IMG/VR virus record: IMGVR_UViG_2663762648_000009
Reading direction: 5' to 3' (one strand)
Source: a virus
Taxonomy: Duplodnaviria > Heunggongvirae > Uroviricota > Caudoviricetes
DNA length: 18,052 nucleotides
Made by a program: the position numbers and the translations under genes. Shown here piece after piece: positions 67 to 18,052 of the stretch (its first letter is position 1; each line of letters starts with the position of its first letter). The notes below the pieces were generated by a model that ran no database searches, was not told where the DNA came from, and saw only the letters and a list, made by a program, of their open reading frames with translations.

Positions 67-6022
<5,956 letters not shown>

Positions 6023-6212
6023 GCTTACCTTCCCTGAACGAGCTAACATAAATGCGCCCTTTCTAGCACAGCGAAAAAATGTAAATACTGATAGCAATAC
6101 GATTGAAAATTAATAACTTTTCGTTAGGCAGTTTTGGGTGTGAGTTGCAAGAGGGGAGACTACTGAATAACTCAAGTTTTATAATCGAGGGGAAAATGGT
6201 GATGGCGTTCAT

Positions 6213-8831: not shown

Positions 8832-11303
8832 TTAAAAATCAGCCTGACTCGGGATCAGTTTTTGCCAGATAACTGAAACGTATTTTGCCTGGTAACGGGC
8901 GTCATCAAGTGCATTATGGCGCTCACCTTCGAATGGAATAGCCGTTCTGGCATCGAAGTCTATGGCTTTCCCCAGCTCAACGATTGTGCGTACATCGCGA
9001 TCGTTGTAGTAACGCCACGGGCAGGGGATCCCCTGCCGTTCGTATGAACGGCGCAAAATCGTGTTGTCGAAGTTGGCTCCATTTCCCCAGACCTGAACAA
9101 AAAATTCACCGGAGTTTTCGTCGATAAATTCCCGCAATTGTAACAGTGCATCATCTAACGGGATTTCATCGGTCATAATGGCAGATTGCGCTTCGCGTGA
9201 TTGCTTAAGCCACCATTTAATGGTGTCCCGATCAATGACTCCGCCAGCAGTTTCCAGATCGATAGTCTTACTAAATTCCGGTCCCATATCTCCGGTTTGC
9301 GGATCGAAAAATATTGCACCTATTGAGATGATCGGGGCATCAGGATTTTTTCCCATGGTTTCAAGGTCGATCATTAGATGGTCACACGTCCTGCTGGTGG
9401 ATGTGATTTCTTGATGACCGTTCACCTTAATTGAGTGATCTGCCGTCTCGCCAGTTTCATTATCGCTATCGTGATGCTGATTGCCGCCAGTGTTCTCCTT
9501 GTGTGGATGTTCAGCGCCTTCCATTTCCTCCGGATCATCTTCCTGAACTTCAGGCTGATACTCTTTATCGAATGTTTCCTGGTATGTTGCGTCGCCCATT
9601 ACCGCGCCACAATCAGGGCAGTTGCCACCACCGCTTTGACCGCAGGCGGTGCAGACTTTTTCCGGTTCCTGTTGCGCTACTGGCTCAGGTTGTTTCGTTT
9701 CTGGCTCGTTTTGTAACGCATTTGGGCTGTTTTGTTCCGCTTTCTGGCCGTTCTGTTCCGTTTCTTGTTGGTTCTGATTCACTGAATCGCGGGTTTCAAT
9801 CCCCTTCACCCATTTCGGATCATTCGGGTCGCTAATCCCTGCAACAAATTCACCACGTGATACAGCAAGCAACTTATTGGCGTCAGGCTGGCTGATATTG
9901 GCTGCCTGCATAATTTTGTTTACTTCGTCAGCGGTAACTTTTACCGGCTCTGGTTGTGCGATCGTGTCAGATGCACCAGTATTTTGTTGTGAACCTGAGT
10001 ATGTACTGTTTTTGCGGGCGAAATATTCTTCTTTCGTGATTTCAGTAGCCCCGGCAGCCAGCGCCTTATCCAGACCAGAAAGTTTGTTTGCGCGACCGTA
10101 TTTTTCGCCATCCTTGTCGGTGAAGAGGAAGTAGAACGGCCCTTCACGCTCTACAGATGGTTCGACTTCCACTTTGCATTCGGTTTTTTCGTTGTCCGGA
10201 ATTGCCGTTTCCACTGCATCAGTTTCTGGTACTGGCGACGAGAGAGTATCAGTTGCGCTCTGATTTCTTCCTTCATCTTCAAACACGCCCTTTGTAGTCA
10301 GGTATTCAGTAATGTATTTGTTCAGTGCCACAGGATCTTTGTGAATGTCGATCGGACGTTCACGGACAAGGCCAAAAATAGTCTGGCGGTCGTAGCGAAG
10401 GGCATCAGGCTGTTTGCGCATTGATGCCGAGATACGCTTCCAGTCTTCGCGGCCGTTGTCGATAACTTCATTTTTTGCCCAGCGATGGATGCTGCCGTCA
10501 ATGTTTCCGGCATCCACATCACCAGGCCAGAGAGCGTAGGCCAGTTCGTCATCCAGTGTTTTCCATGTCTGCTTGTATTCGCGATGAATGGCAGCAATGA
10601 CCGGGCTGATTTTTCCTGTTGAATTTTCAGTGTACTGTTGATTGGCTCTGGCGCGGGCGAGATCAACAACAGACGTGTATTTTCCGGTTTCCTTGCGTTC
10701 ACCTTCGCGACGTTTTTTCCAGATGCGCATCTCTGCCTGAATTTCGGGCCATTTAGCACCAGGAATACATTTATGCTTAACCCACCCAATGGCGTGCAAC
10801 TTAAGCTCCGGATACATGGCGTTAACTTCTGGCATTTTCATCAACGCTTCAACGATATGTCCGTCGAATGTTGCCATGTCTTCCTGCAACAATTCCTGTG
10901 CGCTAATAACCATATCAACGGTGATGTTTTCACATGTGTCGAACTTAACCATGACAGCGTTCTGTACTTCAGGGGCCAGCTTGTCAAAAGTGACGTTCAT
11001 CGGATCGGATTCAGTCTCAACCGGGACAAAAGAAGCAGACTCCTCATCCCAGCGGTTTTCCTGCATATATTCAGCATCCCATGAATCGAGGGCAGGGCGG
11101 GGTATGCCAGGTTTATCCTCGCAGACAATAAATTTATAAGCGCAGTCCTGAGCAGCCGGATAATGTTCCAGGAATTGCCAGTGAAATTTTGCGCGGGCGC
11201 GACATTCATCACCGGCTTCAATGGTAGTGGCTACAGCGACTGCACCTTCTTCCTTTATTGCCTGTTCGTCCGGAATGGCGGCGCAAATAAAGACTTTACT
11301 CAT
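8832..11303 (-). CDS. Prophage exonuclease: C-terminal DEDDh (DnaQ-like) 3'-5' exonuclease domain, central Cys4 zinc ribbon, N-terminal region of unknown function
   Basis: 823-aa ORF. C-terminus carries Exo I/II/III-like motifs (MIDLETMG, WGNGANFDNTIL, HNALDDARYQ); centre has CTACGQSGGGNCPDCG. Such proteins are often auto-annotated exodeoxyribonuclease VIII, but the motifs seen are DnaQ-like rather than RecE-like PD-(D/E)XK. ATG 11301..11303. Confidence 0.85.
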   Translation of the reverse strand: MSKVFICAAIPDEQAIKEEGAVAVATTIEAGDECRARAKFHWQFLEHYPAAQDCAYKFIVCEDKPGIPRPALDSWDAEYMQENRWDEESASFVPVETESDPMNVTFDKLAPEVQNAVMVKFDTCENITVDMVISAQELLQEDMATFDGHIVEALMKMPEVNAMYPELKLHAIGWVKHKCIPGAKWPEIQAEMRIWKKRREGERKETGKYTSVVDLARARANQQYTENSTGKISPVIAAIHREYKQTWKTLDDELAYALWPGDVDAGNIDGSIHRWAKNEVIDNGREDWKRISASMRKQPDALRYDRQTIFGLVRERPIDIHKDPVALNKYITEYLTTKGVFEDEGRNQSATDTLSSPVPETDAVETAIPDNEKTECKVEVEPSVEREGPFYFLFTDKDGEKYGRANKLSGLDKALAAGATEITKEEYFARKNSTYSGSQQNTGASDTIAQPEPVKVTADEVNKIMQAANISQPDANKLLAVSRGEFVAGISDPNDPKWVKGIETRDSVNQNQQETEQNGQKAEQNSPNALQNEPETKQPEPVAQQEPEKVCTACGQSGGGNCPDCGAVMGDATYQETFDKEYQPEVQEDDPEEMEGAEHPHKENTGGNQHHDSDNETGETADHSIKVNGHQEITSTSRTCDHLMIDLETMGKNPDAPIISIGAIFFDPQTGDMGPEFSKTIDLETAGGVIDRDTIKWWLKQSREAQSAIMTDEIPLDDALLQLREFIDENSGEFFVQVWGNGANFDNTILRRSYERQGIPCPWRYYNDRDVRTIVELGKAIDFDARTAIPFEGERHNALDDARYQAKYVSVIWQKLIPSQADF

Positions 11304-11398
11304 TTTGTTTTAACCTCATTACAGATTTCAGGGTGAACGAATCCCTGCCATTGCTGGCATTTTTAATCCGTTGGTATGGCGTTAATATGGCTGGCGGG

Positions 11399-11587
11399 TT
11401 ATCCAGCCGGTATTTCGTTATTCAGGTTCAGCGATACTTTTTTTAACGGGAGGCATTCACCGGGGATTTTTTGTTCGTCCCTTACCTGAATGCAGGATGA
11501 CTTACTGTCATAAATTCCGGTAATCACATTTTGTGGCTCACCCGTTATAAGAAAAACGGTCATCACCAGTGCAAATGCTGAAGTCAC
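11399..11587 (-). CDS. ydfD: YdfD-like small protein with N-terminal hydrophobic/signal segment (Qin prophage lysis-type protein family)
   Basis: 62 aa (MTSAFALVMTVFLITGEPQNV...EQKIPGECLPLKKV...EIPAG). GTG start overlaps the dicB stop (GTGA). Position immediately after dicB matches the Qin dicBF operon order. Name from recalled similarity. Confidence 0.6.
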   Translation of the reverse strand: MTSAFALVMTVFLITGEPQNVITGIYDSKSSCIQVRDEQKIPGECLPLKKVSLNLNNEIPAG

Positions 11588-11772
11588 TGCTGTTCTCCGA
11601 TAATACCAAGTTCAAGAAGGGCAATTCTGGAAAGTATGGAATTATCATTGAGAAGATAAGGTTCATATTTTCTCATCTTAATGGCATCTTCCGTAAACTC
11701 CCGGTTACTGAGCAGAACACCAATATCAAAACAACCTTCAGACGTATTAACGTTTGGTAATAACGTTTCCAT
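11584..11772 (-). CDS. dicB: DicB-like cell division inhibitor
   Basis: 62 aa from ATG 11770..11772 (METLLPNVNTSEGCFDIGVLLSNREFTEDAI...), GAGGA 7 nt upstream. N-terminal half matches recalled K-12 DicB (METLLPNVNTSEGCF...), C-terminal half diverged. Lies ~170 nt downstream of dicF. Confidence 0.75.
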   Translation of the reverse strand: METLLPNVNTSEGCFDIGVLLSNREFTEDAIKMRKYEPYLLNDNSILSRIALLELGIIGEQQ

Positions 11773-11946
11773 TATCGCGTCCTCAACAATGAATTTTGTG
11801 ATGCGGTGCCTGGTGCCTCCAGGTGACGTTAACCAGTTAACAATTAACGCCGGATACAGAGAATCCACCCATAACACTGTTTTTGGTTTTAACTGTTCCG
11901 CGTGCGCTCAGCCGCATTCACCACATCACAAAATTCACTTTAAAAA

Positions 11947-11999
11947 GGGCGGCAGAGCAGTCACGGAGTAAAACTGATACCGCCAAACGTCACCAGAAA
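11947..11999 (-). ncRNA. dicF: DicF small RNA (copy 1)
   Basis: Minus strand reads TTTCTGGTGACGTTTGGCGGTATCAGTTTTACTCCGTGACTGCTCTGCCGCCC followed by TTTTT, matching the 53-nt DicF sRNA as recalled. Operon context (ydfABC upstream, dicB downstream) agrees. Confidence 0.85.
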
Positions 12000-12131
12000 A
12001 TTGATAACAGAGGGCGTTGCAGCGGAGTTGTCACTTAAGCGTATGGTCAACCTGACAACCCGGTGTCCTCAACGGAGGTGATGCTGCCAACTTACTGATT
12101 TAGTGTATGATGGTGTTTTTGAGGTGCTCCA

Positions 12132-12407
12132 GTGGCTTCTGTTTCTATCAGCTGTCCCTCCTGTTCAGCTACTGACGGGGTGGTGCGTAACGGCAAAAGC
12201 ACTGCCGGACATCAGCGCTATCTCTGCTCTCACTGCCGTAAAACATGGCAACTGCAGTTCACTTACACCGCTTCTCAACCCGGTACGCACCAGAAAATCA
12301 TTGATATGGCCATGAATGGCGTTGGATGCCGGGCAACTGCACGCATTATGGGCGTTGGCCTCAACACGATTTTACGTCACTTAAAAAACTCAGGCCGCAG
12401 TCGGTAA
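12132..12407 (+). CDS. insA: IS1 InsA (transposition inhibitor / N-terminal part of InsAB' transposase)
   Basis: 91 aa [37 protein letters not shown]..., zinc-finger CxxC...CxxC, canonical IS1 InsA. Confidence 0.9.
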
Positions 12408-12829
12408 CCTCGCGCATACAGCCGGGCAGTGACGTCATCGTCTGCGCGGAAATGGACGAACAGTGGGGCTATGTCGGGGCTAAATCGCGCCAGCGCTGGC
12501 TGTTTTACGCGTATGACAGTCTCCGGAAGACGGTTGTTGCGCACGTATTCGGTGAACGCACTATGGCGACGCTGGGGCGTCTTATGAGCCTGCTGTCACC
12601 CTTTGACGTGGTGATATGGATGACGGATGGCTGGCCGCTGTATGAATCCCGCCTGAAGGGAAAGCTGCACGTAATCAGCAAGCGATATACGCAGCGAATT
12701 GAGCGGCATAACCTGAATCTGAGGCAGCACCTGGCACGGCTGGGACGGAAGTCGCTGTCGTTCTCAAAATCGGTGGAGCTGCATGACAAAGTCATCGGGC
12801 ATTATCTGAACATAAAACACTATCAATAA
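12326..12829 (+). CDS. insB: IS1 InsB reading frame (expressed as InsAB' fusion by -1 frameshift)
   Basis: 167-aa ORF in the -1 frame relative to insA, overlapping it; canonical IS1 organisation. Confidence 0.85.
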
Positions 12830-13314
12830 GTTGGAGTCATTACCAACCGGAAAGTCTCCATGGTACAGACCCGTGCGCCATCAGGAACGGTTTCGGTGAA
12901 TCTGATGTTGCCGCGTTCGTCGAAGTGAACAACCAGGGTGCGGCCATCGCCTGGAATTATTTTGTCAGTGGGTGGGGTGTTATTCTGGCGCAGTTCGGCC
13001 TCCATGCGATCGAACTCAGCAATGTAGGCTTCTTTAAATGCAGCGGCTTTTTTGCCAGTGAATCCCATCACCAGGAAAACGAAGCCGTTTTTGGTGATTT
13101 GGTACATCGGGCGTTTTTCGCCTTTGGCGTCAGTGTAGGTGACGTCCTCAAAATTGAGGGCGTTAAATTCAGGTGAGCATTCAGTATTTGCGATGGCACG
13201 TAACACATTGTCGTGACGCTTGCCAAAGAACTCTGCGATCGCAATAGACGTAGTGACAGCGCGACCATTTTCGATGGTTACGTCAGGGTGAGAAAGGGCA
13301 GGGATAGTAGCCAT
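12823..13314 (-). pseudogene. Rha-family phage regulatory protein (antirepressor-like), 3' end truncated by IS1
   Basis: ORF from ATG 13312..13314 (MATIPALSHPDVTIENGRAVTTSIAIAEFFGKRHDNVLRAIANTE...), GAGGA 7 nt upstream; N-terminal region resembles the Rha domain. The reading frame runs into the IS1 right end at 12844/12845 and its last codons (VMTPTY-stop) are IS1 sequence, so the native C-terminus is missing. Confidence 0.7.
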
Positions 13315-13483
13315 GATGGCATCCTCGAGTGATAAGTTAATTAACTCACCACCGAGGTTTTCCACGACCATAAGGGTGGTGAGACGTACAGGGGTGGAAA
13401 TACCGGTCACTCGAGAACCCGGCCAGTCTTGCGACTGCCCTGCACATCCCACCATAATTTGAATGGAGCTGTGCATTACGCAT

Positions 13484-13508
13484 AAAAAAACCGCTTCAGC
13501 GCGGCTAT
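13484..13508 (-). terminator. Possible weak intrinsic terminator
   Basis: On the minus strand a short GC stem (CCGC/GCGG, plus 13491..13504) is followed by seven T (plus 13484..13490). Stem is only 4-5 bp. Confidence 0.35.
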
Positions 13509-13512
13509 GCGC

Positions 13513-13611
13513 TCAAGTAACGTTCGGGTTTCCACGCCCGGCACCCGTTTTATAAGGTGCAGGTGCACTATAATTCCACCCGTTCTGGTTTTCAATAGCT
13601 ACATTCAACAT
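13513..13611 (-). CDS. Hypothetical 32-aa ORF downstream of dicF copy 2
   Basis: ATG 13609..13611 with AGGAAAGAG upstream (MLNVAIENQNGWNYSAPAPYKTGAGRGNPNVT), followed by the T-tract hairpin. Occupies the place dicB has in the other copies. Very short, no recognisable family. Confidence 0.3.
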   Translation of the reverse strand: MLNVAIENQNGWNYSAPAPYKTGAGRGNPNVT

Positions 13612-13794
13612 TTTCTCTTTCCTTTCATCACCGAAGTGAACTTTGTTGATGCGGTGCCTGGTGCCTCCAGGTGACGTTAACCAGTTAACAATTAACGCCG
13701 GATACAGAGAATCCACCCATAACACTGTTTTTGGTTTTAACTGTTCCGCGTGCGCTCAGCCGCATTCACCACATCACAAAATTCACTTTAAAAA

Positions 13795-13847
13795 GGGCGG
13801 CAGAGCAGTCACGGAGTAAAACTGATACCGCCAAACGTCACCAGAAA
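13795..13847 (-). ncRNA. dicF: DicF small RNA (copy 2, in a diverged context)
   Basis: Same 53-nt DicF sequence. Flanks are identical to copy 1 from about 13647 to 13925, then continue to about 13970 with three substitutions relative to copy 3. Downstream (minus) it is followed by the small ORF and the Rha-like gene instead of dicB. Confidence 0.8.
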
Positions 13848-14040
13848 ATTGATAACAGAGGGCGTTGCAGCGGAGTTGTCACTTAAGCGTATGGTCAACC
13901 TGACAACCCGGTGTCCTCAACGGGGAAGGAATAACTCCGCCATACTTACCGCCGCGTCATTTCGCGTTGTGTGCCTGCTTTTAACCACGTCAGGCGAGGT
14001 GGTATCCTTCTTATCCCGAATAACCAAGAAGGAAATCTAT

Positions 14041-14086
14041 ATGACTAAAGAAGAATTTGTCTCTTATATTTTTGATAAAACGGTTG
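14041..14086 (+). pseudogene. 5' fragment of an unknown gene interrupted by IS1
   Basis: AAGGAA then 6 nt then ATG at 14041; 15 codons (MTKEEFVSYIFDKTV) before the IS1 left end at 14087. No continuation found in the window. Confidence 0.35.
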
Positions 14087-14141
14087 GGTGATGCTGCCAA
14101 CTTACTGATTTAGTGTATGATGGTGTTTTTGAGGTGCTCCA

Positions 14142-14417
14142 GTGGCTTCTGTTTCTATCAGCTGTCCCTCCTGTTCAGCTACTGACGGGGTGGTGCGTAA
14201 CGGCAAAAGCACTGCCGGACATCAGCGCTATCTCTGCTCTCACTGCCGTAAAACATGGCAACTGCAGTTCACTTACACCGCTTCTCAACCCGGTACGCAC
14301 CAGAAAATCATTGATATGGCCATGAATGGCGTTGGATGCCGGGCAACTGCACGCATTATGGGCGTTGGCCTCAACACGATTTTACGTCACTTAAAAAACT
14401 CAGGCCGCAGTCGGTAA
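14142..14417 (+). CDS. insA: IS1 InsA (second copy)
   Basis: Identical 91-aa ORF to 12132..12407. Confidence 0.9.
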
Positions 14418-14839
14418 CCTCGCGCATACAGCCGGGCAGTGACGTCATCGTCTGCGCGGAAATGGACGAACAGTGGGGCTATGTCGGGGCTAAATCGCGC
14501 CAGCGCTGGCTGTTTTACGCGTATGACAGTCTCCGGAAGACGGTTGTTGCGCACGTATTCGGTGAACGCACTATGGCGACGCTGGGGCGTCTTATGAGCC
14601 TGCTGTCACCCTTTGACGTGGTGATATGGATGACGGATGGCTGGCCGCTGTATGAATCCCGCCTGAAGGGAAAGCTGCACGTAATCAGCAAGCGATATAC
14701 GCAGCGAATTGAGCGGCATAACCTGAATCTGAGGCAGCACCTGGCACGGCTGGGACGGAAGTCGCTGTCGTTCTCAAAATCGGTGGAGCTGCATGACAAA
14801 GTCATCGGGCATTATCTGAACATAAAACACTATCAATAA
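14336..14839 (+). CDS. insB: IS1 InsB reading frame (second copy)
   Basis: Identical 167-aa ORF to 12326..12829; ends 6 bp before the truncation point. Confidence 0.85.
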
Positions 14840-14845
14840 GTTGGA

Positions 14846-14912
14846 CGACTGCACCTTCTTCCTTTATTGCCTGTTCGTCCGGAATGGCGGCGCAAATAAA
14901 GACTTTACTCAT
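14846..14912 (-). pseudogene. Orphan 5' fragment of the exonuclease gene (first 22 codons plus upstream region) fused to the IS1 end
   Basis: Sequence equals 11237..11303 (MSKVFICAAIPDEQAIKEEGAV); the reading frame then runs into antisense IS1. Confidence 0.6.
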
Positions 14913-15007
14913 TTTGTTTTAACCTCATTACAGATTTCAGGGTGAACGAATCCCTGCCATTGCTGGCATTTTTAATCCGTTGGTATGGCGTTAATATGGC
15001 TGGCGGG

Positions 15008-15196
15008 TTATCCAGCCGGTATTTCGTTATTCAGGTTCAGCGATACTTTTTTTAACGGGAGGCATTCACCGGGGATTTTTTGTTCGTCCCTTACCTGAAT
15101 GCAGGATGACTTACTGTCATAAATTCCGGTAATCACATTTTGTGGCTCACCCGTTATAAGAAAAACGGTCATCACCAGTGCAAATGCTGAAGTCAC
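15008..15196 (-). CDS. ydfD: YdfD-like small protein (second copy)
   Basis: Identical to 11399..11587. Confidence 0.6.
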   Translation of the reverse strand: MTSAFALVMTVFLITGEPQNVITGIYDSKSSCIQVRDEQKIPGECLPLKKVSLNLNNEIPAG

Positions 15197-15381
15197 TGCT
15201 GTTCTCCGATAATACCAAGTTCAAGAAGGGCAATTCTGGAAAGTATGGAATTATCATTGAGAAGATAAGGTTCATATTTTCTCATCTTAATGGCATCTTC
15301 CGTAAACTCCCGGTTACTGAGCAGAACACCAATATCAAAACAACCTTCAGACGTATTAACGTTTGGTAATAACGTTTCCAT
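15193..15381 (-). CDS. dicB: DicB-like cell division inhibitor (second copy)
   Basis: Identical to 11584..11772. Confidence 0.75.
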   Translation of the reverse strand: METLLPNVNTSEGCFDIGVLLSNREFTEDAIKMRKYEPYLLNDNSILSRIALLELGIIGEQQ

Positions 15382-15555
15382 TATCGCGTCCTCAACAATG
15401 AATTTTGTGATGCGGTGCCTGGTGCCTCCAGGTGACGTTAACCAGTTAACAATTAACGCCGGATACAGAGAATCCACCCATAACACTGTTTTTGGTTTTA
15501 ACTGTTCCGCGTGCGCTCAGCCGCATTCACCACATCACAAAATTCACTTTAAAAA

Positions 15556-15608
15556 GGGCGGCAGAGCAGTCACGGAGTAAAACTGATACCGCCAAACGTC
15601 ACCAGAAA
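15556..15608 (-). ncRNA. dicF: DicF small RNA (copy 3, in the intact operon context)
   Basis: Same 53-nt sequence. This copy keeps the uninterrupted leader back to ydfC (15609..15946), including an upstream stem GTTGTCA ... TGACAAC. Confidence 0.85.
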
Positions 15609-15946
15609 ATTGATAACAGAGGGCGTTGCAGCGGAGTTGTCACTTAAGCGTATGGTCAACCTGACAACCCGGTGTCCTCAACGGAGGAAGGAATAACCCC
15701 GCCATACTTACCGCCGCGCCATTTCGCGGAGTGCCACAACCGGAAGCGCACGGTCGAACTAAATTTAACGACACCGTACAGAGAGACCAATTTCGCCGTG
15801 CGCTTTCGCTTTATGCCCTGACTTTTCAGGGACATATCCTTTCAGTAAACTGTCAGTGCCGGATGTTCACCCGTGTCCGGCGCACGCACTCCACCTGACC
15901 CGTGGAGAACTCCTTAATTACCAACCTTAGCTTCGTTGGTTAGCTA

Positions 15947-16480: not shown

Positions 16481-16663
16481 GCTGACCTCATTTCCCCTTA
16501 ACGCCGGGGTAGCGGAACAAAAACCTGCTGCATAGTTATTAAAGTTGAACCCTGCCGTCATGTTCTTACGCCTCGGGCTGGCTATTTAACCCCTGACCAC
16601 TGCCAGGTAACTCGAAGTATTGCCCTGCATTCTGTGGGGCGGGGTGGGTTGGTATGTTGTTAA

Positions 16664-16683
16664 GGTAACAAGAGTTACCTTTC
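16664..16683. promoter_or_regulatory. Perfect palindrome AAGGTAAC-AAGA-GTTACCTT, candidate operator in the early-left promoter region
   Basis: 8-bp perfect inverted repeat with 4-bp spacer, between the repressor terminator and ydfA, adjacent to a TTGACT -35-like hexamer on the minus strand (plus 16685..16690). Related GTAAC/GTTACC half-sites occur in the cI-cro intergenic region (17471..17490). Confidence 0.3.
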
Positions 16684-16720
16684 GAGTCAATACAATGTTG
16701 CAAAAGGTACATTTGAGGGC

Positions 16721-16747
16721 ATAAAAAACCCGCAATGAATGCGGGTT
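16721..16747 (-). terminator. Intrinsic terminator downstream of the repressor gene
   Basis: 8-bp perfect stem (plus 16727..16734 / 16740..16747), 5-nt loop, followed on the minus strand by six T and an A (TTTTTTA); 6 nt after the repressor stop codon. Confidence 0.65.
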
Positions 16748-16752
16748 CTGAC

Positions 16753-17469
16753 TCAGTCTAAGTATTGATGTATTTGTGAAACTTTACCTTTAATGGTGTA
16801 ACCACCATTCAGTTCGATGGGTTTGTAAAGCGGATTCAGTGACAACAGATAGATGTTTGGTCCGTCAATCGCAACTTTTTTTAGTGTTACGTTTGGCGTT
16901 CCTTCCAATTGGATTAAGATTATTTTTCCCACCAGTTCTCTAATGTTACTTGAGCATGGTGTGATCAGCACGGTAGATCCGTTGGGGATGGTTGGGAGGC
17001 CGTTAGAGTTTGTCATCGCATCTCCCTCAACATGCAATAAAAAAGAGTTTTCAGCGGTTTTTGTCATGACATCAACCCAATTCTTAATACCAGGAATCTC
17101 GGTTACTGGACAACTCATATCCCAATAACCAGCCTGTTCCCACGTTAAAACGGGCAACCGGGCGATGTTGTCACTAATGTAAGGGTACTGATTCAGACGC
17201 AGATCATCGGCTTTATCGTGACCGTCCTTTCCATAAAGAATCCATTCAGGAGATTTGGAAAGCAATTTTGACAGTAGATACAAATTCTCACCGTCAGGTT
17301 TTGAAGAGCCATTTTCCCATTTTGTTACGGATACACGAGATATGCCGATTGCTTTCGCAACCTGCTGTTGGGTTAATCCAACGTCTTTTCGACGATTCCG
17401 AATACGTTCGCTGATAGTGTTTTTCATGTAACCAATGTTACTACCAAGTGATGTTGCTATGGTTGACAT
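16753..17469 (-). CDS. CI-like prophage repressor (N-terminal HTH, C-terminal LexA/S24-like domain)
   Basis: 238 aa from ATG 17467..17469 (the listed 257-aa ORF starts at a TTG that overlaps cro). HTH segment LTQQQVAKAIGISRVSVTKWENG; C-terminal region aligns by eye with lambda CI (FLLHVEGDAMT ... VTLKKV ... LLSLNPLYKP). No obvious Shine-Dalgarno, so possibly leaderless as in lambda cI. Confidence 0.85.
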   Translation of the reverse strand: MSTIATSLGSNIGYMKNTISERIRNRRKDVGLTQQQVAKAIGISRVSVTKWENGSSKPDGENLYLLSKLLSKSPEWILYGKDGHDKADDLRLNQYPYISDNIARLPVLTWEQAGYWDMSCPVTEIPGIKNWVDVMTKTAENSFLLHVEGDAMTNSNGLPTIPNGSTVLITPCSSNIRELVGKIILIQLEGTPNVTLKKVAIDGPNIYLLSLNPLYKPIELNGGYTIKGKVSQIHQYLD

Positions 17470-17518
17470 TGTTATGTAACTATTGTTACCCTTCTGCTCG
17501 AAATAACAGGAGAGTTTT

Positions 17519-17734
17519 ATGTTCAAAGATGATGTTCTGCGCTATTTCAAAAAAAAGCGACTAGTAGCTGAGGCTCTTGGAATTTCACATGTGGCTGGTG
17601 TGCGGGGGAAAGCAGTTATTCCCAAACTTCGCGCAATGGAACTGGATGAAATTACTAACAGTGAATTGAAATACAACCCAGAACTTTACAAGAAGCAGGA
17701 TAGCACCTCAAACGAAGGAAAGAATGATTCATGA
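17519..17734 (+). CDS. Cro-like / DicC-like small DNA-binding regulator
   Basis: 71 aa, divergent from the repressor, AGGAG 7 nt upstream of the ATG; stop overlaps the next gene start (ATGA). Pattern LRYF..K..LAEALGI ... RAM.L.E resembles the DicC/YdaS family as recalled. Confidence 0.7.
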   Translation: MFKDDVLRYFKKKRLVAEALGISHVAGVRGKAVIPKLRAMELDEITNSELKYNPELYKKQDSTSNEGKNDS

Positions 17735-18052
17735 AAATCAAGCATGAACACATCCGCATGGCGATGAATGTCTGGGCGCATCCGGACGGCGAAAAAGTAC
17801 CGGCTGCGAAAATTACCAAAGCGTATTTCGAGCTGGGAATGACGTTCCCGGAACTGTATGACGACAGCCATCCGGAAGCCCTGGCCCGTAATACCCAGAA
17901 AATTTTCCGCTGGGTAGAGAAAGACACCCCTGATGCAGTTGAAAAAATTCAGGCGTTGTTACCAGCGATCGAAAAGGCAATGCCACCTTTGCTGGTGGCC
18001 AGAATGCGCAGCCACAGTTCAGCTTATTTTCGGGAGCTGGTGGAGACGCGGG
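17731..18052 (+). CDS. YdaT-like prophage immunity-region protein (partial, runs off the window end)
   Basis: Open frame from ATG 17731 to the window edge (MKIKHEHIRMAMNVWAHPDGEKVPAAKITKAYFELGMTFPELYDD...), translationally coupled to the Cro-like gene. Absent from the ORF track because no stop lies within the window. Family name from position and recalled similarity. Confidence 0.55.
   Translation, partial: MKIKHEHIRMAMNVWAHPDGEKVPAAKITKAYFELGMTFPELYDDSHPEALARNTQKIFRWVEKDTPDAVEKIQALLPAIEKAMPPLLVARMRSHSSAYFRELVETR

Follow-up and report, generated by a model that had tools for sequence, protein, structure and literature searches.

A LexA-like repressor with alanine at the position of the catalytic serine, widespread in dicBF prophages of Escherichia coli and probably non-cleavable

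The stretch of DNA analysed here (the window) comprises 18,052 nt. It begins as E. coli chromosome (yeeJ, tRNA-Asn, mtfA and tRNA-Ser), and then passes into the left arm and immunity region of a lambdoid prophage. The subject of this analysis is the repressor gene of that prophage, an open reading frame (ORF) of 238 amino acids (aa) on the minus strand (Table 1). The protein is built from two domains. The N-terminal region forms a helix-turn-helix (HTH) domain (62.5 bits to Pfam HTH_3) and is matched by the N-terminal domain of P22 C2 (phmmer, E ~1e-12). The C-terminal region is a Peptidase_S24 domain (PF00717, 59.8 bits against a cut-off of 23.3), and the protein is labelled 'LexA family protein' in RefSeq. 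In an AlphaFold2 (AF2) model the C-terminal domain has a predicted local distance difference test (pLDDT) score of ~90. The best Foldseek matches of the model are lambda CI and LexA, with a template-modelling (TM) score of 0.83 for the superposition of the C-terminal domain on the lambda C-terminal domains 1kca and 1f39. Deposited serine-to-alanine non-cleavable mutants (1jhh, 1jhc, 6a2s and 8s7g) are among the matches.

The position of the nucleophilic serine in this domain is occupied by alanine (Ala151), while the lysine that serves as general base (Lys197) and the Ala-Gly dipeptide of the scissile bond (Ala113-Gly114) are both present. Sequence, profile and fold comparisons agree on these assignments. 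Ala151 corresponds to S149 of lambda CI and S119 of LexA, Lys197 to K192 and K156, and Ala113-Gly114 to A111-G112 and A84-G85, respectively, where the textbook numbering is reproduced by the lambda and LexA reference sequences used. A single phmmer alignment to the full-length lambda repressor (3bdn) extends over residues 25-231 (E = 2.4e-13), pairing VEGDAMT with VEGNSMT, VTLKKV with FTFKKL and EQAGYW with VQAGMF. MAFFT, run on the repressor together with lambda CI and 21 homologues, recovers the same catalytic columns. Alignment of the family to E. coli LexA by hhalign (probability 95.9%) pairs VSGMSM, VTVKRL and AAGE of LexA with VEGDAM, VTLKKV and QAGY of the repressor. An earlier reading of the window, made from the sequence only, had placed the gene correctly, and its proposal of a retained LexA-like fold with alanine in place of serine and a conserved lysine is borne out by the model and by all three alignment methods. 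That sequence-only reading had also pointed to a serine just downstream, in TNSNG, which a profile alignment might place at the catalytic position. This residue, Ser155, does not fall in the catalytic column of any alignment, and both the family consensus (GDSMTNPxG) and the Salmonella homologue with Ala have proline there. The family alignments show no other conserved serine that could serve instead.

Among 143 relatives the residue at the position of Lys197 is Lys in 138 and Arg in five, and the nucleophile is Ser in 125, Ala in eight, Thr in six and another residue in four. In most of the other lineages without serine the Ala-Gly site, or a larger part of the motif, is missing as well, whereas in the clade of the present repressor (termed Ala-type) the nucleophile alone is altered. 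Ala-Gly is kept in every member of the Ala-type clusters that was read except one, which has WEQVG. Within the family, features needed for cleavage have disappeared repeatedly and by different changes. For example, homologues from Symbiopectobacterium-type symbiont Enterobacterales (P0010-P0013, P0015 and P0019 in the alignment) retain Ser and Lys and have Val, Leu or Ile followed by Ser in place of Ala-Gly, and the entire G-D-S-M motif is gone from an Arsenophonus homologue.

Both autodigestion and RecA-mediated cleavage are abolished in LexA S119A and lambda CI S149A. Because of this, the conclusion that the Ala151 repressor should not self-cleave is strongly supported. The defining catalytic feature of an S24 autopeptidase is absent, and the protein is therefore best filed as a non-peptidase homologue of the family.

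The Ala form is common. Of 5,426 complete E. coli genomes, 681 contain an exact match to the 59-mer centred on the GCG codon of Ala151, and none contains one to its TCG counterpart. Counting the gene as a whole, 702 of these genomes have it, at an identity of at least 99% in 661, 95-99% in 33 and 80-90% in eight. The Ala-type gene (at least 95% identity) is thus carried by 694 genomes (~13%), and there are at most two gene copies per genome (median one). When the proteins are clustered at 90% identity each cluster is uniform at the nucleophile position. It is Ala in cluster 1 (E. coli and E. albertii, 499 members), cluster 2 and the Salmonella cluster 4, and Ser in the E. coli cluster 3 (39 members) and in cluster 5 from Enterobacter bugandensis. 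All 80 loci retrieved from IMG/VR encode VEGDAMTN with the GCG codon, and have an intact ORF and intact operators (three operator motifs in 78 loci and two in the other two). A sequencing error or a strain-specific mutation is ruled out by the 681 genomes, the uniform clusters and the 80 IMG/VR loci.

Selection was examined by comparison of two Ala lineages, the window and P0002, which are separated by a dS of ~0.5-0.7. For the C-terminal domain, with 42 synonymous against 12 non-synonymous differences, the dN/dS ratio comes to 0.06; for the HTH domain it is 0.09. The pN/pS ratio is 0.09 in the region of the cleavage site, and likewise in the catalytic core. Neither ratio is higher between Ala forms than between Ala and Ser forms. 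The C-terminal domain, catalytically disabled as judged from its residues, is yet under purifying selection.

A sister allele of the repressor carries serine at this position. The Ser-type protein (WP_024173670.1 / WP_028985609.1; P0003 cluster) is 87% identical to the Ala repressor. The two share their length, their neighbours (P22_Cro-like, YdaT, DUF1391 and dicB) and the operator motif with its positions, but the nucleophile of the Ser type is Ser (TCA). Just eight of the complete E. coli genomes carry this allele, compared with ~694 for the Ala type. Three of the eight loci were inspected (repressor genes at L013 20007-20723, L100 13007-13723 and L014 20007-20723). Two of them lie in Shiga toxin 2a (Stx2a)-converting prophages with an uninterrupted int gene, in strains O178:H19 2012C-4431 and JNE120393, and the third, from the yak isolate ST130, is in a phage of the same type without stx.

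The Ser (TCN) and Ala (GCN) codons of the lineages compared are linked by a first-position T/G change. The codon is GCG in the window and in P0002, GCA in the Salmonella lineage (P0005), TCA in the E. coli Ser type (P0003) and TCG in Enterobacter (P0006). In a neighbour-joining tree built without the nucleophile column, comprising few lineages and with recombination not modelled, the E. coli Ser clade is nested within a group of 98% support that is otherwise Ala (two E. coli clades and Salmonella), and the outgroups have Ser. This placement would need at least two Ser/Ala changes, either two losses or a loss and a reversal.

The HTH regions of the E. coli Ala and Ser alleles are almost identical. 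Because their operator sequences are shared as well, the two alleles probably constitute one immunity group. On that basis we suggest, as a speculation of low probability, that the Ser/Ala site could act as a one-nucleotide evolutionary toggle of SOS inducibility within the group. In that case the widespread Ala form would behave as a trans-dominant 'ind-minus' repressor, able to hold a homoimmune Stx2a phage repressed under DNA damage. Since the operators are common to both forms, an Ala-type prophage could repress an incoming or co-resident Stx2a phage, and if this is true it would lower the release of Shiga toxin and phage. The Ala protein may in addition dock on RecA* filaments through its conserved Ala-Gly/Lys region without being cut.

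Three exact GTAAC-N4-GTTAC palindromes of 14 bp flank the repressor gene, where 0.38 would be expected even if one mismatch were allowed. Two are in positions equivalent to the right operator (OR) of lambda, and the third, 3′ of the gene, to the left operator (OL). The first OR-type site is identical in the five homologous loci compared. The second OR-type site and the OL-type site are common to the E. coli Ser-type and P0002 loci, with the latter site at the same position in both, and the motif also occurs at matching positions in the Enterobacter locus. The gene is followed by a predicted intrinsic terminator, which shortly precedes the OL-type site and whose strong hairpin has a calculated folding energy of -16.7 kcal/mol (z = -3.65); it is absent from the output of a consensus terminator scan.

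The translation start of the repressor is probably not that of the ORF. The likely true start is Met15, which would generate a 224-aa protein, a form that is already used by some database entries, and codons 1-14 are probably not translated. The dN/dS ratio across these codons is ~1, with synonymous divergence that is also lower in the closest comparisons, and residues 1-15 have a pLDDT <50 in the AF2 model. The annotated start, ATGTCAA, reads on the other strand as a conserved TTGACAT that contains the -35 element of the cro-side promoter, and NIGY in the annotated N-terminus is translated operator sequence. An mRNA beginning at Met15 would possibly be leaderless or have a short leader.

On the other side of the OR-type sites a cro-like gene runs divergently from the repressor gene, followed by the 5′ part of a ydaT-family gene that runs off the window. 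Genes at these positions are the cro and cII equivalents in the related CP-933P and Rac regions, according to two published accounts (PMC9986795, PMC8630535). In strain H19 a 103-aa ORF annotated 'Rha family transcriptional regulator' replaces ydaT after the cro-like gene (L017 18979-19290); among Ala-type prophages, therefore, the immunity region has a mosaic right arm.

Table 1. Features of the repressor gene and its surroundings, by position in the window
Feature	Position	Strand	Basis or remark
Repressor ORF, 238 aa	16753-17469	-	ORF list
Codons 1-14, probably not translated	17428-17469	-	
Met15 ATG, likely true start	17425-17427	-	
HTH DNA-binding domain, residues 23-77	17239..17403	-	Pfam HTH_3
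S24/LexA-like C-terminal domain, residues 106-230	16780..17154	-	Pfam, AF2, Foldseek
Ala113-Gly114, scissile-bond position, kept	17128..17133	-	phmmer, MAFFT, hhalign
Ala151 (codon GCG), Ser-nucleophile position	17017..17019	-	phmmer, MAFFT, hhalign
Lys197, general-base position, kept	16879..16881	-	phmmer, MAFFT, hhalign
Putative operator GTAACTATTGTTAC (first OR-type)	17476..17489	.	exact palindrome; in spacer of predicted rightward (cro) promoter
Putative operator GTAACCAATGTTAC (second OR-type)	17428..17441	.	directly 5′ of Met15 ATG
Putative OL-type operator GTAACAAGAGTTAC	16665..16678	.	inside predicted leftward promoter
Predicted cro-side promoter	-35 TTGACA 17463-17468; 18 nt; TGn-TACCCT 17484-17492		read from sequence
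Predicted leftward promoter	-35 16685-16690; -10 16662-16667	-	inferred; built like cro-side promoter
Predicted intrinsic terminator of repressor gene	16720..16748	-	AACCCGCA/UGCGGGUU stem, then U-run
Divergent cro-like gene, 71 aa	17519..17734	+	Pfam P22_Cro, 39.9 bits; RefSeq 'Cro/CI family transcriptional regulator'
ydaT-family gene, 5′ part	17731..18052	+	Pfam YdaT_toxin, annotation; runs off window
isrK sRNA	13484-13560	-	Rfam, above gathering score
C4 antisense RNA	13372-13459	-	Rfam, above gathering score; overlaps/adjoins Ash/Rha ORF
Ash/Rha-family ORF	12826-13476	-	3′ end cut by IS1 at ~12844

The Ala-type module is found at a minimum of four attachment sites. It is located at serU/mtfA in the window and in EC6, at ompW in S2, at potC in H19, and at yccA in the P0002 locus and in O111:H8. 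The prophages of S2 and H19 have uninterrupted int/xis, replication, Q, lysis and terminase genes. Those of EC6, O111:H8 and the window are damaged. A frameshift affects the integrase of both EC6 and O111:H8, the exonuclease of O111:H8 is disrupted by an insertion sequence (IS), and the window contains IS1 rearrangements.

Two IS1 copies are present in the window (~12077-12844 and ~14087-14854). The dicF-dicB segment is duplicated, with 11237-12075 and 14846-15684 being 100% identical, and there is a third, partial copy at 13642-13923. The window thus contains three DicF genes (11947-11998, 13795-13846 and 15556-15607) and two dicB ORFs. The region 11237-15733 could result from IS1-mediated rearrangement, from recombination with another prophage or from an artefact of assembly, and looks like one of the first two. 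Within the chromosomal part, the region of the yeeJ adhesin (67-6097, minus strand) is split into three consecutive ORFs (67-3939, 3869-5020 and 5021-6097), in agreement with the yeeJ pseudogene ('frameshifted; internal stop') of the closest genome, STEC384. Two further comparisons were set aside. None of the phage records in INPHARED is >44% identical to the Ala repressor; the same holds for the Ser-type allele, so the result does not discriminate and is unused as evidence. Prophage Sp12 of O157 Sakai, checked via the neighbour family ECs_2282, has a different, short CI and is uninformative here.

Taken together, the gene is likely to encode the immunity repressor of a lambdoid Qin/Rac-like dicBF prophage, and to be a natural serine-to-alanine, non-cleavable repressor whose derepression is uncoupled from RecA and the SOS response. 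Its architecture and the purifying selection upon it suggest that the protein represses lytic promoters and confers immunity. The N-terminal HTH domain would bind to the 14-bp GTAAC-N4-GTTAC operators, which overlap the predicted divergent cro-side and leftward early promoters. By analogy with lambda CI, the LexA-like C-terminal domain would be kept for folding and for dimerisation and cooperativity. A single T-to-G change (TCN to GCN) would have converted the serine of the Ser-Lys dyad into alanine, leaving Lys197, Ala113-Gly114 and the fold intact. Such a protein should repress normally and escape RecA*-stimulated autoproteolysis, and the derepression of dicB/dicF, cro, ydaT and the lytic genes would thereby be uncoupled from the SOS response. 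Ala-type prophages are very probably not directly switched on by DNA damage. Any induction would be SOS-independent; candidate routes are stochastic or growth-phase flipping of the cro/ydaT switch, as described for CP-933P, and a trans-acting antirepressor from another element. In the related ydaS/ydaT region of CP-933P, PaaR2 is a CI-like protein without the peptidase motif that is reported to be unresponsive to mitomycin C, within a switch reported to flip with growth phase (PMC8630535).

Several observations weigh against this interpretation. About 13 of the 694 Ala-type genomes are without confirmation at the codon itself. A consensus promoter scan found no sigma-70 site around the repressor gene, and the operators and promoters are predictions. 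The searchable literature contains no experiment or paper on the Ala repressor; that on natural CI repressors without the serine and on the non-inducibility of HK022 provides general precedents only. The identity of at least 99% between genes in diverse strains and at diverse attachment sites suggests that horizontal spread is ongoing, and therefore that there is some induction, or recombination between prophages. Finally, Ala-Gly and the lysine are kept under purifying selection, and would be needless in a mere dimerisation domain; the protein could thus still undergo cleavage in trans or bind RecA*.

An alternative is that the repressor is indeed non-cleavable but is inactivated by an antirepressor, the Rha-family protein of the window or an equivalent, as in Gifsy, 186 and N15. 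The sequence-only reading had seen in the Rha gene another possible route to induction. The genes for isrK, a C4-type RNA and the Ash/Rha ORF lie consecutively at 13560-12826 on the minus strand, and resemble the antirepressor modules isrK-orf45-anrP of Gifsy-1 and immI (c4-icd-ant) of P1. AnrP of the Gifsy-1 locus is described as antirepressor-like (PMC4825925), and cross-talk between prophages through trans-acting antirepressors has been documented (PMC3121763). However, the Rha ORF of the window is truncated by IS1, lacking ~29 C-terminal codons compared with a 284-aa homologue. The module is missing from all of the 80 other Ala-type loci from IMG/VR, where its place is occupied by dicF, and from the four inspected Ala-type prophages (EC6, S2, H19 and O111:H8). 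The truncation and this absence exclude Rha as a conserved general partner of the repressor, and the proposed route finds no support. In other genomes the module is part of the leftward early operon, adjoining dicB, and Rha would therefore sit behind the very repressor it should inactivate. Nor is there a sign of control by LexA: neither the strict pattern CTGT-N8-ACAG nor a relaxed 20-mer scan revealed a LexA box in the window or in the whole EC6 prophage. One match, in L011, is outside the prophage, and two in L009 are weak and lie within coding sequence. Apart from the 103-aa 'Rha family' ORF of H19, no annotated antirepressor is present in the inspected prophage stretches of EC6, S2, H19 and O111:H8. 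We consider inactivation by an antirepressor to be unlikely, though one from an unrelated co-resident prophage acting on the Ala repressor is possible.

The retention of the scissile bond raises a different possibility, that the Ala protein is still cut at Ala113-Gly114 in trans by a co-resident S24 protein bearing serine, either CI-like (possibly within a heterodimer) or of the LexA/UmuD type. Intermolecular cleavage has been described for C-terminal fragments of LexA and lambda CI, and for UmuD. The conservation of Ala-Gly, the cleavage-site region and Lys197 under purifying selection extends to three Ala lineages, and decay of the Ala-Gly site in most other relatives without serine points in the same direction. 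Yet cleavage of CI and LexA in trans is inefficient compared with the intramolecular reaction. With eight genomes of the Ser type against ~694 of the Ala type, and a median of one gene copy per genome, the matching partner would normally be absent, and a structural role within the fold can account for the conserved region. Cleavage in trans is thus improbable. The view that the alanine is one lesion in a decaying cryptic prophage, without functional meaning in a repressor that is becoming a pseudogene, draws on the visible degradation of several Ala-type prophages but is very hard to reconcile with the low dN/dS of both domains, the intact ORF and operators of the IMG/VR loci and the near-identity of the gene in 661 genomes, with the uninterrupted genes of other Ala-type prophages, and with alteration of the nucleophile alone, through the mildest exchange able to abolish catalysis, in a clade with at least two changes at this site.

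By the textbook account, lambdoid phages, including those encoding Shiga toxin, are released through induction by DNA damage, and the database labels 'LexA family protein' and 'S24 family peptidase' imply SOS-driven self-cleavage of the Ala repressor. Judged from sequence, the repressor of ~13% of complete E. coli genomes would be unable to self-cleave, while its rare sister allele in Stx2a prophages would be able to do so. If the non-cleavable nature of the Ala repressor is confirmed, predictions of SOS inducibility based upon domains must include a check of the catalytic residues. The Ala and Ser alleles would then provide a natural matched pair for studying selection on SOS coupling, and the common Ala-type prophages might give DNA-damage-proof immunity against homoimmune Stx2a phages.

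The repressor can be compared with several known systems. With lambda CI and P22 C2 it shares the HTH and S24/LexA-like domains, a divergent cro-like gene, palindromic operators on both sides of the gene, the Gly-x-[Ser]-Met context, the general-base lysine and an alignable Ala-Gly site. It is ~36% identical to P22 C2 (tblastn) and only ~25% identical to lambda CI, from which it differs in having alanine at the position of Ser149. Lambda has three OR sites where two are detected in the window, and cro and cII in its right arm where the window has the P22_Cro-like gene and ydaT, the equivalent of cII. LexA S119A and lambda CI S149A carry this substitution at the equivalent place in the structure, and their active sites are otherwise unaltered. 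These engineered proteins fold normally, and serve as uncleavable forms in structures. In contrast to them, the window repressor bears a natural substitution, which has become fixed across hundreds of E. coli genomes as well as a Salmonella lineage, in a gene under purifying selection.

The DicA-like control of the dicBF operon to which the sequence-only reading had likened this system proves an apt comparison. DicA of the K-12 Qin prophage is 57% identical to the N-terminal domain over 65 aa and occupies the same gene position, followed in Qin as in other Ala-type prophages by ydfA-ydfB-ydfC-dicF-dicB, an order that is partly kept but rearranged in the window. Both are repressors of a dicBF operon without a catalytically competent self-cleavage domain. 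Unlike the repressor, DicA has 135 aa and no S24-like domain. The NCBIfam DicA model (NF007257) scores 79.4 bits against a cut-off of 101 and covers residues 16-93 only, so that the repressor falls outside that family, and the operator also differs, with no GTAAC-N4-GTTAC site in the dicA-dicC region.

GfoR and GtgR of the Gifsy prophages, which are controlled by LexA-regulated antirepressors, and PaaR2 of CP-933P are likewise lambdoid repressors that are uncleaved on SOS induction (PMC3121763, PMC8630535). They differ in being ~120-150 aa in length and having no peptidase domain, whereas the window repressor keeps the domain and loses only the nucleophile, and no LexA-controlled antirepressor locus of the Gifsy kind is found in cis in the window or in the EC6 prophage. 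Non-cleavable prophage repressors are thus well known (GfoR/GtgR, PaaR2 and that of N15), all of them without the domain. The window repressor differs in that selection has preserved the complete domain together with the scissile site and the lysine, and the nucleophile alone is replaced, just as in the mutants made by experimenters.

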